From NCBI GenBank assembly GCA_965231145.1, contig OZ246420.1:450001-482000 (forward strand): a DNA stretch of 32,000 nucleotides, written 5' to 3'. Position numbers and translations under genes: made by a program. The DNA is from Candidatus Saccharimonadota bacterium. GTDB lineage: Bacteria > Patescibacteriota > Gracilibacteria > Absconditabacterales > Absconditicoccaceae. The number at the start of each line of letters is the position of its first letter. Position 1 is the first letter of the stretch. Below the pieces are notes generated by a model that saw nothing but the letters and a program-made list of their open reading frames with translations, was not told the DNA's origin and did not search any database. Positions 17,785-31,135 of this stretch are shown piece after piece.

Positions 17785-18366
17785 TTAATTAGTCTTATTT
17801 CTATTTACCCATCGCTGATCATCTTTGTCGGTAAATCGTCGTTCATCATATGCTGTTTCAAGGATCTGAGTACACATCTCTTTTGCAACATCCGTCTTGA
17901 GTCTTTGTCTTGCTGAATCGAGCCAGTTCTTTGCGCGCTGATTTCCAAGATCCCATTGCTCTTTGAGCACCAGGATAAGTTCTATATTATCAGCATCCTT
18001 TGCAATGAGAGATTCTTTACTCTCGCGCTGTTCATATTCTTCCAAGATATGACGCATTGCATTTCCGAAAGGGAGATTTGCTGTGAGATCTTCGATAGCC
18101 TTGTGTTCATCAACTTGTACATATTTCTGATGCACATAGTTATGATCGAGTGTTCTTCCCTCAGCAAGGTCGTGGAAAAGACACATCTGCATTACTTTAC
18201 CAGCATCAACCGTACCATCGAGCATGGCCAATGCATATCAGATGTAACATACCCTGTTCGTATGCTCTGCAACGCTCTGACTTCCGCTTCCAAGGAAAGC
18301 AAATCAACTTCTTGGGGTCTTAGCAAGCATTCCAACTTCGAAAAGAAAATTTGCGACACTTTTCAT
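17785..18366 (-). CDS. HD-domain phosphohydrolase (YfbR/5-prime-deoxynucleotidase-like, 193 aa)
   Basis: PRS-G-FAF, SVAEH, FHDLAE and KDADNIE are present, with TGAs at 18304 and 18238. The ATG is at 18364-18366. Confidence 0.8.
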
Positions 18367-18407
18367 CCACAATAATAATGAATAAAAATACCTTATGTAA
18401 TTCGTAA

Positions 18408-27796: not shown

Positions 27797-29995
27797 TTAT
27801 TCTTTCATAGCCTCTATCACCTCAGGTATAAACTCTTCCAATGGAATATTGAGGAAAGTCTCACAATTTCTGAGGTGTTCTCTGCTCACACCAGCGGCAA
27901 ACTTGCTATCTTTGATCTTTTTCATGACCGATTTCACCTCCATACCCTCGAAACCTTCTGGCCTCATAAGTGAGTATGCATAAAGGAATCCAGAAAGCTC
28001 ATCGACTGAGGCCAGATATCTTCTGATAAGAAGATCGACTGGGACTCCGGTTTTCTCGTGGTAGTGAGAACGTATGTCGTCGATAAGTGCCTGTGGTAAA
28101 TTGATTTCTCCTACGATAGTATGAAACTCATCCCCCAGATGTTTATCGGCATCTTTCCCAATATGATCCCAGTCTACATCGTGCAATAGTCCTGCAAGAT
28201 ACCAGACATCTTCATCCTGACCAAGCTTTTTCGCAAAATAATGCATCACCTTTCCAACCTGTTCGCAGTGCTTGCGAGTCTCTGTCAGATATTTATCTGC
28301 AAGTGCCTGTGAATCGCTAATAGAGGGTATATTTTCATATGAGACTTCTCTGTCTGTATGTATTGGTGTAACTGAACCTTCTTTATTTGATTCTGAACTT
28401 TGATTTTTGCTTTCTGAATTTCAATGAAGTGGTTTCATCATAGGGAAAAGTATAACATCACGGATGTTTGACTGCTCGGTGAGTAATGCGAAAATACGGT
28501 CAATTCCCATACCCCAACCAGATTGTGGAGGCATACCGTATTCCATAGCTTGAACAAACTCAGGGTCTCCTGATGTTGCTTCTTCGTCTCCTGCGGCAAG
28601 CGCTCATGCCTGTGCATCAAAATTAGCCTGCTGCTCTATTGGATCGACAAGCTCTGAATATGCTTTGATCACCTCCCATCCATTGATAAGAAGCTGCCAC
28701 TGTTCTACTATGTTTTTGTCGCTATCGCTTGTGCGCGCAAGAGGCTGCATCAGTTTTGGATAGTTGACGATGAAGGCCGGACCGACGATCTTAGGTCTTG
28801 TCACCTTTTTGTAGAGGTAGTCGATCATCGTTGTCAGACCTTGCTTATCCATCCCTTCCCAGCTATGACCTGCTGCTTTGATGTCAGCTCTGAGTTTCTC
28901 GTCATCTCCTTCCTTATATGCGCCCACGTCTATTCATGAGTCTTTCTTGATCTGGTCAACATAATTGACGCGCTGCCATGGTGTCTGAAATGATACAGAC
29001 TTAGATACTCCTTGTTTATCCACAACATTGATCGTCTGCTGAAGTTCTGGGATATTTGCAAAGATGTAGTTGAACATCTCTTCAGTAAACTTCATATTAT
29101 CTTCATGATTCCAATACGCAGCATAGTGCTCGATCATCGTGAATTCCTGATGATGACTTGGATCTGATCATTCATTGCGGAAATCTTTCGCTACTTCAAA
29201 TACCTTTTCTAACATTCCGACAGTAGCTTTCTTGAGGTTCGTTTCTGGGGAAATTCTCAGGTACATATCGAGATCAAAGTCATGGTGATGTGTTACGAAG
29301 GGCTTCGCCGCTGCCCCAGAGGCAGAGTTTCCAAGCACTGGTGTCTCAATTTCTATAAAACCTTTATTCCAATAGAAATCTCTTATCGTCTTCATAAATT
29401 TTGCACGAAGCTTCATTCTATCGAGCGATTCTCTATTGAAGATCATATCGAGATATCTTTGTCTGTATGCTCTTTCCTGGTCTTCTCCGATCCCATGAAA
29501 TTTGTCACCAAGCGGCTGTATCGCCTTTGCGAGAAATGTATAATTTGTCACGAACAATGTAAGCTCTCCCTTATGTGTCACAAAAAGCTCTCCCTCTACT
29601 CAGATGAAGTCACCAACATCTACCAGTTTTTCCAATATCTTATATGCGGTCATTTCTAATTCCTCCTTGTTTGATTGTGCTTTGTGACCTGTGCTTTGTG
29701 AATTGATAACGCAGTTATCCTTGTGAAACATAAGTTGAATCTCTCCAGACTCATCCAATAACTTTCAAAAAGAAAGTTTACCATGACTTCTGAAAAGAGT
29801 GAGCCTTCCGGCCGTTTTATACTGATTTTTTGGAGCAGGAATAATTTCTTCTACATCGCGGAAACTTTCACCTTCCTTTCCCAGAAGATCGCTGATCATC
29901 GATGTCTTATCATACTTTTGTGCATAAGGATTTATCCCCAATGAACGGAGTGTTTCCACTTTCTGTTTTCTTACTTCATATTCTGAAAGAGCCAT
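27797..29995 (-). CDS. lysS: Lysyl-tRNA synthetase (class II) fused in frame to a C-terminal HD-superfamily domain (732 aa)
   Basis: Track ORFs 29765-29995, 29168-29581, 28934-29137, 28604-28927 and 27797-28249 share one frame with TGAs at 29765, 29602, 29168, 28934, 28604 and 28421. [13 protein letters not shown] and ILFPMMK are present. A linker then leads into [32 protein letters not shown] checked every triplet and found no TAA or TAG. Confidence 0.85.
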
Positions 29996-30017
29996 TTATC
30001 ATCATAACATAATTAAA

Positions 30018-30067
30018 GATACAGATACAGATGACAGATACGGTCTCAGTATCTTGTATCAGTATCT
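30018..30067. repeat. GATAC-word element (family B, copy 2)
   Basis: gatacagatacagatgacagatac-N7-gtatcttgtatcagtatct, 23 nt upstream of the lysS ATG. Confidence 0.7.
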
Positions 30068-30181
30068 ATTGGAATAATGCTTTATTCTATATAGAAAGCT
30101 GGCTTATTTTCAACCAGAACCCATGTTAAATAAGAGATAAAAGATAATAAATAAAAAATATTTCTTATCTCTCATTTTTAT

Positions 30182-31135
30182 TTATAAGAAATAATGTTTA
30201 TACGTTACATTCTCTTTCGGCTTCGTATTCGCTTCAAGGATGTATCTACGAAACCGAGTTCTTTGTTTCTTTGCAAAGTAATGTGTGTTTTTCTTGAGTT
30301 CCTCTTCGAGCGTCTCTCTGCCATATTTCCCTTGCCGATAGAGTACGGTTTCCTTATAGCCGATGCCATTCATCGCTTGATGCTCCAACGTATATCCTTG
30401 CTTCATCAGTCATTGGACCTCTTCTAGTAGTCCTGTCTGGAGCATCTCTTTAATACGGCAATTGATACGCTTATTGCTGTCGTCTTTTTCACGCCAGAGA
30501 CCGATCATGAGTAATGGCTGCTTGACTGGCATCTCATTGGCAAGTGAGGTCTTAGTCTTACCAGTTTTTTCATATATTTCCAAAGCACGGATGATATATC
30601 TCGTACTATTTGGATGGTGTTTATTTGCTTCTTCGGGATCTATTTCTTGTAATCTTTTTCGAAGGATCCCTGGTTCTTTTTCCTCTTCAGCAGACCATTT
30701 GTCGCGAAGTGGCATATCTGCTTCGATATCAGGCATCTCAAAGTTTTTGTAGATCATATCAATATAAAGCCCCGTTCCTCATACGATAAGTGGGATATTG
30801 CCTCTTGCTATGATCTCTGGTATGAGTCTGTCGGTTGCTGTTCTTCGCTGTCCAGCAGTATACGTCTCATCAGGATTGACAATATCTATCTGATGGTGAG
30901 GAACTTTCTGACGAATCTCTTCAATTACTTTATCTGTCCCAATGTCCATAAAACGAAAAATCTGACGTGAGTCAGCTGAAATGATTTCTACCGGAAAATG
31001 TTCCGCTAATAAAAGAGAAAGCTTGCTTTTCCCTGTCGCAGTCGCTCACCGTATCACTACAGCGCCTGTTGGATTGCTTTCGTGAAAAGTCTGAATTGTT
31101 TTTTTTGCATCCTCTAGGATGTCAGATACTTCCAT
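30182..31135 (-). CDS. miaA: tRNA dimethylallyltransferase MiaA (317 aa)
   Basis: Joined through TGAs at 31046 (P-loop G-ATATGKS), 30779 (LIV-G-GTGLY) and 30410. SADSRQIFRFMDIGTDK is present. The frame was checked and ends in TAA. Confidence 0.9.

Follow-up and report, generated by a model that had tools for sequence, protein, structure and literature searches.

A predicted fusion of lysyl-tRNA synthetase with an HD-superfamily domain encoded in an Absconditabacterales genome

The stretch of DNA analyzed here (the window) is the 32,000-nucleotide segment from position 450,001 to 482,000 of contig OZ246420.1, and it carries on its minus strand a lysyl-tRNA synthetase (LysRS) gene, lysS, whose reading frame extends into a domain of the HD superfamily. 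Positions are those of the whole window, and residues are numbered along the 732-residue fusion protein unless alignment A1 is named. Translated with table 25, the locus is a single open reading frame (ORF) of 732 codons that runs from 29995 to 27797 and ends in a TAA stop at 27797-27799; the Logan assemblies L001 and L002 contain the identical ORF. The predicted product begins with an OB-fold anticodon-binding domain (residues 61 to 153, positions 29537-29815; Pfam tRNA_anti-codon, PF01336, E = 4.6e-11, above the gathering score), which is followed by a class II catalytic core (residues 173 to 520, 28436-29479; tRNA-synt_2, PF00152, E = 1.4e-79) that covers model positions 2 to 307 of 308. 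The OB-fold and the complete D/K/N catalytic core are those of a class II LysRS; the motifs FRNEG, in which the glycine is encoded by TGA, and GMGIDR align with those of LysRSs from standard-code organisms, and the best relatives carry the source name lysine--tRNA ligase. A Ser/Asn/Lys/Glu-rich linker (residues ~521 to 558, 28322-28435), predicted to be disordered from an AlphaFold2 model and the junction alignment, leads into an all-helical HD phosphohydrolase domain (residues ~559 to 732, 27800-28321), in which Pfam recognizes the HD family (PF01966) over residues 575 to 630 (E = 4e-06, 27.5 to 29.8 bits against a cutoff of 22). Judged from its sequence, the locus almost certainly encodes one polypeptide of 732 residues that consists of a complete class II LysRS, a disordered linker of ~35 residues, and an HD-superfamily domain of ~175 residues.

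The frame contains TGA at codons 77, 132, 276, 354, 464, and 525, and its first TAA or TAG in table 25 is the terminal stop. The window protein was aligned with 13 other LysRS-HD proteins, six of which were translated from standard-code DNA without in-frame TGA. In this alignment codon 276 (29168-29170) falls on the invariant glycine of FRNEG (14/14 sequences) and codon 132 (29600-29602) on a position that is glycine in 11 of the 14. Glycine is the commonest residue of the column at codon 354 (28934-28936; 6/14), codons 77 (29765-29767) and 464 (28604-28606) occupy variable columns, and codon 525 (28421-28423), at the junction, sits in a variable column of the linker. Because two of the TGAs fall on glycines that are conserved in standard-code LysRSs, including that of FRNEG, UGA is best read as glycine in this genome (code 25), and the junction TGA would be an ordinary sense codon. 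The whole window is recoded in this way, with 94 in-frame TGAs distributed over 30 ORFs. TGA at conserved glycines and dense recoding match genetic code 25 of SR1/Gracilibacteria and are ordinary for the lineage; the closest labelled relatives of the window protein are metagenome-assembled genomes (MAGs) of Absconditabacterales. A search for tRNA genes in the 32,000-nucleotide window found none, and hence no tRNA-Gly(UCA) was seen there.

Codon 525 lies right after the C-terminus of LysRS, and the linker it enters is encoded with a repeated word, TTCTGAA, which occurs twice on the plus strand (at 28391 and 28412). The linker varies in length and sequence among relatives; in the related contig L004, KPLIS-NSESK corresponds to KPLHG-NSESK of the window, with TCA (Ser) in place of TGA (Gly). 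No ATG, GTG, or TTG occurs in frame between the TGA and the codon of H576 (28268-28270), which is the first metal-ligand histidine of the HD domain. The sole internal start, a GTG-ATG pair at 28249-28244, lies 3' of H576 and yields a product of 149/150 residues without this histidine, as in the public table-11 call P0003, for which the pair serves as a false start. A first-pass annotation of this DNA had claimed a lysS frame open from 27797 to 29995, a TGA directly behind the LysRS C-terminus, a Ser/Asn/Lys-rich linker with a word repeat, and a complete HD domain that could not come intact from an internal start; all of these claims hold, the last by the codons of the frame itself. Its description of the synthetase as reading through the UGA, taken as a recoding event, does not hold, and the glycine columns at codons 276 and 132 point to plain sense decoding.

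Chance is excluded as the source of the HD extension: 207 codons free of TAA and TAG have a probability of ~0.002 given the composition of the window, and the homologues of the HD frame reach E = 4e-105. The junction and HD sequence, TGA included, is base-identical in runs ERR4405439, ERR4405440, and ERR4405441, which were assembled separately, so an assembly error is unlikely. The table-11 ORF listing cuts 27797-29995 into eight pieces. In the public table-11 calls on the same contig (L001 to L003), miaA appears in three pieces, lysS in several, and the HD domain as the 149-residue P0003, which lacks the first metal-ligand histidine.

In alignment A1, which comprises the HD domain of the window and 97 homologues, H51, H80, D81, D83, H94, and H119 are invariant, and D140 and E141 are nearly so; in the fusion protein these residues are H576, H605, D606, D608, H619, H644, D665, and E666, respectively. 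H605, D606, and D608 form the HD doublet and the invariant aspartate that follows it (H605-D606-V-D608, 28172-28183), H619 (28139-28141) and H644 (28064-28066) are candidate ligands of a second metal, and D665 (28001-28003), the last aspartate of the H..HD..H..H..D motif, is always Asp or Glu. Conservation was also counted in 36 fused, 89 free, and 24 otherwise-extended family members. H576, H605, D606, D608, H619, and H644 are kept in at least 35 of the 36 fused and at least 85 of the 89 free members; i.e., the first histidine is present in 35/36 and 85/89, H619 in 36/36 and 87/89, and H644 in 36/36 and 89/89, respectively, and the doublet of the fusions has His in 36/36 and Asp in 35/36. K692, F699, and R705 are likewise kept across the fused, free, and otherwise-extended members.

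The H...HD...D signature and the all-helical fold place the domain in the HD superfamily, and its sequence has the two extra histidines, H619 and H644, between the doublet and the final aspartate that are found in dinuclear HD proteins. The six-residue motif H..HD..H..H..D diagnoses a dinuclear site, as in YqeK (PMC8177086). The AlphaFold2 model of the HD fragment is all-helical, with a mean predicted local distance difference test (pLDDT) score of 92.7 and a predicted TM-score of 0.85. The first ~25 residues of the fragment, which belong to the linker, are modelled with low confidence (mean pLDDT of 54 for residues 1 to 10, 53 for 11 to 20, and 81 for 21 to 30), and the first helix or strand in the DSSP assignment comes no earlier than residue 34. 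Because the HD domain is 88-94% identical to that of L004 with all ligands retained and the linker only 50%, the HD residues are under clear purifying selection. Since the six-ligand set is kept in fused and free members, the domain is probably catalytically active as a di-metal phosphohydrolase.

For the HD domain, the protein search returned 2303 homologues, and the family comprises 1362 clusters at E ≤ 1e-3; its usual form is a free-standing protein of ~180 residues, and many homologues bear the JGI name "predicted hydrolase (HD superfamily)", which is in keeping with the resemblance to COG2316-type HD hydrolases proposed in the first-pass annotation. As a single sequence, the HD domain had no match in the PDB at E ≤ 1. 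A profile search of the PDB gave YqeK (8jja, E = 0.009), with the match confined to the H..HD region, and PgpH (E = 0.025). In a Foldseek search of the PDB, the nominal best match was YqeK (8wmy_B, E = 0.043, TM-score 0.43 to 0.45, root mean square deviation 11.7 Å), which is not separable from other HD families. It was followed by the HD domain of the glycyl-tRNA synthetase β-subunit (GlyRS-β; 7eiv_C, E = 0.063, query TM-score 0.49), with 7eiv_D and 7yse_C at a query TM-score of 0.50 and GlyRS-β probabilities of 0.99 to 1.00, by a small alarmone hydrolase as the third fold match (7qoe, E = 0.088, TM-score 0.47), and by PgpH (4s1c_D, E = 0.13, TM-score 0.42); HD-GYP proteins were also among the weak matches. 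No Foldseek match in the PDB was better than E = 0.04, and hence no function is transferable by structure. Among the 98 family members compared with NCBIfam, 89 match the generic HDIG domain, 71 the HD part of DVU_1551-type nucleoside triphosphate (NTP) transferases, 61, weakly, the NadD-YqeK model PRK07152, and 8, also weakly, the archaeal tRNA methyltransferase-HD model PRK12703. Membership of the YqeK family (COG1713) was considered and rejected; its model, TIGR00488, matches 4 of the 98 at E ≤ 0.01 (best E = 1.8e-4), and the window protein has no match to it. A full-text literature search for COG2316 and DUF2000 found nothing. The HD domain is best regarded, on these comparisons, as a distinct family of the HD superfamily, for which no characterized relative was found in these searches.

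The first-pass annotation had proposed that the same C-terminal extension be sought in relatives, where it is present, both at TGA-free junctions and in standard-code genomes. In fragments P0001, P0121, P0006, P0026, P0032, and P0033, no stop codon of any kind separates the LysRS C-terminus from the HD domain, and the junction is free of TGA in P0001 (the closest HD-bearing relative, with 88% HD identity), P0121, P0006, P0026, and P0033. The fusion is independent of the TGA at codon 525. Genomes were scanned at one per species with the pattern GLLHD[LIA]D..., which does not admit the V of the window, and the window's own species was not recovered; at least 80 loci with the HD family were found, with LysRS directly upstream in at least 12. 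Seven uninterrupted standard-code LysRS-HD ORFs were among them, i.e., L011 (Peribacteria), L022 (Microgenomates), L030, L032, L041, and L045 and L084 (Pacebacteria), in genomes mostly labelled as groups of the candidate phyla radiation (CPR); L009 and L010 are code-25 fusions. Full-length fusions of 683 to 732 residues occur among the top 150 cluster representatives of an exhaustive profile-free protein search; the exact 732-residue sequence of the window is absent from the protein collection searched. The LysRS-HD order is found in 36 of 150 sampled family members, which are spread over several separate branches of a neighbor-joining tree, rough as that tree is, and intermixed with free-standing members. 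In P0356 (715 residues) the order is reversed, with the HD domain N-terminal and LysRS C-terminal; its cluster, which includes P0376, P0377, and P0382, holds eight sequences, some of them fragments and several full length, of which one full-length member was found on 9 contigs of up to 85.6 kb, and two members bear the JGI name lysyl-tRNA synthetase.

Altogether, the fusion recurs in Absconditabacterales, Gracilibacteria, Peribacteria, Microgenomates, Pacebacteria, and some other lineages. LysRS-HD proteins also occur in records that are not labelled CPR: L030, L053, and L054 ("uncultured Pseudomonadales bacterium"), P0160 ("Spirochaetota bacterium"), and the GC-rich P0179 and P0180. Either LysRS-HD proteins are found outside Patescibacteria (CPR) as well, or the MAGs in question are unreliably labelled. 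One apparent counterexample, P0002 (177 residues, 90% identity, and an ATG of its own ahead of the His helix), was rejected as a separate HD gene and is an artefact of table 11; its DNA, contig L004, contains a continuous code-25 lysS-HD ORF with TGAs within the linker. As these sequences show, the HD family has been joined to LysRS repeatedly and in both orders, sometimes with a NUDIX or DUF2000 domain between.

The fusion is not fixed among close relatives. L005 (GCA_030429145.1) and L007 share the gene order miaA, lysS, a small ORF, an unnamed ORF, an AP-endonuclease-family gene, uppS, and dnaN, and their LysRSs are 78-90% identical to that of the window over the whole length; their lysS genes end in TAA 7 to 13 codons past the ..FPMMKP motif and carry no HD domain. 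Stretches L004:631-2835, L005:3001-4596, and L007:3001-4578 were compared with 27797-29995 of the window. L004 has 84% amino acid identity with the window over residues 1 to 100, 55-65% over the catalytic core (201 to 524), and, as given above, 50% in the linker and 88-94% in the HD domain. The lysS gene is a mosaic among these related genomes. Among related strains, this pattern suggests gain or loss of the HD module, recombination within lysS, or both. A separate HD gene in relatives, which the first-pass annotation had named as evidence against a fusion, does exist in some lineages: L029 (WWE3) has the order lysS, a 73-residue ORF, a separate HD gene, and serS, L012 (Gracilibacteria) has a free-standing HD gene, and there are dozens of free-standing homologues of ~180 residues. 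Such genes indicate that the fusion is labile rather than false at this locus, which they leave unaffected because no start codon here yields an intact domain.

Upstream of lysS-HD lies miaA (30182-31135), separated from it by ~190 nucleotides (29996-30181); in L005 (2435-2920) and L007 (2392-2913), an ORF of 161 to 173 residues without Pfam matches stands between the two genes. The best sigma-70-like promoter match on the minus strand (10/12, 30084-30113) lies ~90 nucleotides 5' of the ATG and is a consensus match only, the counts being not above those of shuffled sequences. A scan for the same consensus found no minus-strand promoter-like site in the junction region, which is weak evidence. 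Downstream are ORFs of 74 and 267 residues without family matches, followed, by synteny with L001 and L005, by the AP-endonuclease-family gene, uppS, and dnaN. Another HD protein, unrelated and 195 residues long, is encoded at 17785-18372 on the minus strand (Pfam HD_3, E = 6e-28; YfbR-like 5'-deoxynucleotidase, E = 5e-09); the genome would accordingly be predicted to have no fewer than two distinct HD hydrolases within 10 kb of each other.

Several family members join the HD domain to other partners. P0228 (935 residues, from a code-25 organism) has the order LysRS-NUDIX-HD; an attempt to assign its NUDIX domain to a subfamily gave only generic matches, to MutT, RppH, and Ndx1. In P0251 (863 residues, from a five-member cluster) and in L009:1922-4546 (Absconditabacterales), the order is LysRS-DUF2000-HD, the insert being identified by a Pfam match and by PDB entry 2gax (Atu0240, E = 0.009); we take the DUF2000 fold to be peptidyl-tRNA-hydrolase-2-like. 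P0330 is an AMMECR1-HD protein and P0321 a GIY-YIG-HD protein. In P0290 the HD domain is fused or immediately adjacent to Ham1/ITPase, with the junction ..EIRGGARINMKRLL.., which may be a read-through of two adjacent genes. A trigger factor-HD protein, P0247, was set aside as a probable chimera with a DUF2000 tail at the junction. No fusion of the family to any other aminoacyl-tRNA synthetase was seen among the architectures sampled. The neighbours of the ~60 free-standing loci (in Balneolales, Gemmatimonadota, Cytophagales, and Ignavibacteria) are lineage-specific only. In L024, L029, L066, and L079, a free-standing HD gene is followed directly by serS; three of these loci are labelled CPR (WWE3, Paceibacterota, and Woesebacteria), and L024 is labelled Pseudomonadales.

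What the HD domain acts on is best approached through its partner. Because the fusion is repeated, partner-specific, and found in both orders, we infer from the sequences that the substrate is linked to LysRS. Five considerations point to a nucleotide. LysRS and LysU are listed as producers of diadenosine tetraphosphate (Ap4A) (PMC10148737); YqeK is the nominal best match by both profile and Foldseek searches; the NUDIX and Ham1 partners are nucleotide pyrophosphatases; the only HD phosphatase with this ligand set in PMC8177086 is YqeK, an Ap4A hydrolase; and the NadD-YqeK protein of mycoplasmas, organisms with a minimal genome, is a direct precedent, in which an HD diphosphatase fused to an adenylyltransferase hydrolyses the off-target products of its partner (PMC9426524). 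On this basis, our preferred reading is that the HD domain tethered to LysRS hydrolyses a nucleotide that arises from the adenylate chemistry of the synthetase, a proposal to which we give even chances. The candidate substrates would be dinucleoside polyphosphates such as Ap4A, Ap3A, and Ap4N, and producer and degrader would be combined in a single protein of a small-genome cell, mirroring mycoplasma NadD-YqeK. A coupled synthetase and hydrolase for Ap4A was also the hypothesis of the first-pass annotation, which pointed to YqeK as an HD-fold enzyme that hydrolyses Ap4A. A small nucleotide of some kind is slightly favoured as the substrate, and an Ap4A-type by-product of LysRS specifically is a more tentative assignment, to which we give somewhat less than an even chance. 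More speculatively, the LysRS-HD protein and its NUDIX, DUF2000, and reverse-order variants could constitute a self-contained synthase-hydrolase module for dinucleoside polyphosphates, with the HD domain representing a third, CPR-centred class of Ap4A/Np4N hydrolase; this is possible, though we would sooner bet against it.

Several observations weigh against nucleotide clean-up as the role of the domain. The likeness to YqeK is marginal: in sequence it covers the H..HD region only, the TM-score of 0.43 is no better than those of the GlyRS-β HD domain (0.49 to 0.50), the small alarmone hydrolase (0.47), and PgpH (0.42), and no more than 4 of 98 members match TIGR00488. A hint of tRNA-linked chemistry comes from the DUF2000 insert. 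The lysS genes of L005 and L007 stop shortly after the synthetase and have no HD domain. Finally, among the ~60 free-standing HD loci no association with lysS or with nucleotide metabolism is conserved, and no universal partner was found.

The alternative that survives best is that the HD domain works on tRNA, by healing the 3' end of tRNA(Lys) as a 2',3'-cyclic phosphodiesterase/phosphatase, by helping in editing or deacylation, or by serving as a module that binds the acceptor stem. The HD domain of bacterial CCA-adding enzymes is a 2',3'-cyclic phosphodiesterase/phosphatase. The GlyRS-β HD domain gave the highest query TM-scores of the fold search, and it is a precedent for an HD domain inside a synthetase, where it is thought to contact the tRNA's acceptor arm (PMC8464048). 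Other points in favour are the DUF2000 domain between LysRS and HD in P0251 and L009, the weak PRK12703 matches of 8 of the 98 members, a conserved basic patch (K692/K695/R705), and the serS gene that adjoins a free-standing HD gene at four loci. However, the doublet of E. coli GlyRS-β is lost, being replaced by Ser-Lys (PMC8464048), whereas the doublet and all other ligands are kept in the window domain, which makes a purely structural role of the GlyRS-β type unlikely. The NUDIX and Ham1 partners suggest small nucleotides instead, most family members are free-standing 180-residue proteins with no tRNA-binding appendage, and every fold match is weak (E ≥ 0.04). On balance, we consider action on tRNA an unlikely role, although one that deserves to be kept in view.

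Only a little less plausible is a general housekeeping nucleotide hydrolase, acting on damaged NTPs or deoxy-NTPs, nucleoside monophosphates, or (p)ppGpp, whose chemistry has nothing to do with LysRS and that is fused to lysS, an essential gene with constitutive expression, only for the sake of gene economy and co-expression in a reduced genome. The family is mostly free-standing and widespread (the 1362 clusters noted above), its neighbourhoods differ by lineage, and it is also joined to AMMECR1, GIY-YIG, and Ham1; moreover, the third fold match is a small alarmone hydrolase, and the lysS genes of L005 and L007 do without the HD domain. Such a hydrolase would not, however, account for a fusion that is specific to LysRS in 36 of the 150 sampled members, on several branches and in both orders, for the presence of lysS near the free-standing HD gene of L029, or for the lack of fusions to other aminoacyl-tRNA synthetases among the architectures sampled. 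Repeated fusion to one specific partner is the classic "Rosetta-stone" signature of a functional link. We therefore rank the housekeeping role as improbable. Very improbable is the third alternative, in which the TGA at 28421-28423 ends LysRS and the HD frame goes untranslated, is a remnant in decay, or forms a gene with its own initiation: lysS of L005 and L007 does end within 7 to 13 codons of the same point, and table-11 gene callers do split the locus, but five more TGAs lie inside the essential LysRS, two of them at conserved glycines, and 94 in the window, no in-frame ATG, GTG, or TTG precedes H576, the HD domain is under clear purifying selection with all ligands kept, the nearest relatives have TGA-free junctions, and the junction has no promoter-like site.

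The repeated fusion to LysRS ties a large HD family, for which no characterized member was found here, to LysRS chemistry. If the substrate is indeed of the Ap4A type, the family would be a new one of Ap4A hydrolases, and this would account for the way in which symbionts with minimal genomes deal with a by-product of the synthetase that also serves as an RNA cap; the fusion would mean control in cis of Ap4A, and hence of Np4A RNA capping, in small-genome bacteria. It would also make a long-debated alarmone accessible to clean biochemistry, its producer and its degrader being parts of the same chain, and a function could be assigned to the whole free-standing HD family of Bacteroidota, Balneolales, and Gemmatimonadota. 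Public annotation names these proteins lysyl-tRNA synthetase, "HD domain-containing protein", or hypothetical, and the code-25 genes are split. Since table-11 calling shreds the gene and yields an HD domain without its first ligand, much public annotation of code-25 genomes hides the architecture.

Among the closest known systems is NadD-YqeK, in which an HD hydrolase and an ATP-using enzyme that transfers adenylyl groups likewise form one polypeptide in a reduced genome; in other lineages, separate but clustered genes encode the two proteins, and the hydrolase is proposed to clear away wrong or surplus nucleotides that its partner produces (PMC9426524). The partner there is NadD, whereas here it is an aminoacyl-tRNA synthetase, and the HD domain of the window lies outside YqeK/COG1713. 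YqeK itself (COG1713), the symmetrical Ap4A hydrolase of Gram-positive bacteria, is of similar size (~190 residues), and both proteins have the H..HD..H..H..D motif. The likeness is nevertheless at the superfamily level only (TM-score 0.43, 14-19% identity); 12 residues separate the HD doublet from the next histidine in the window domain, compared with 31 in YqeK (H50/D51 to H83), and the window family is set apart by signature motifs of its own, i.e., HDxDxD/E, DELSGF, and KDKxFAAxVxR. The β-subunit of the heterotetrameric bacterial GlyRS (7eiv, 7yse) likewise has an HD fold within a synthetase and gives the best query TM-scores (0.49 to 0.50); its HD domain is integrated into the enzyme, whereas that of the window is carried on a long flexible linker and has all metal ligands conserved.

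With respect to LysRS/LysU as an Ap4A synthase, the LysRS of the window is an ordinary class II enzyme, the type that is listed as producing Ap4A. In known Ap4A systems, producer and degrader (ApaH, Nudix/RppH, or YqeK) are separate proteins, whereas here LysRS and the HD domain are joined. A full-text search of a literature library yielded neither a LysRS in covalent linkage with a nucleotide hydrolase or a catalytically intact HD domain nor a description of a LysRS-HD fusion. Catalytic domains appended to aminoacyl-tRNA synthetases have precedents. Neither the LysRS part nor the genetic code is unusual, and both an HD domain within a synthetase and the fusion of an HD domain to an adenylyltransferase are already known; against this background, the LysRS-HD protein offers a solid lead to function that can be tested, but it does not amount to a categorically new system.

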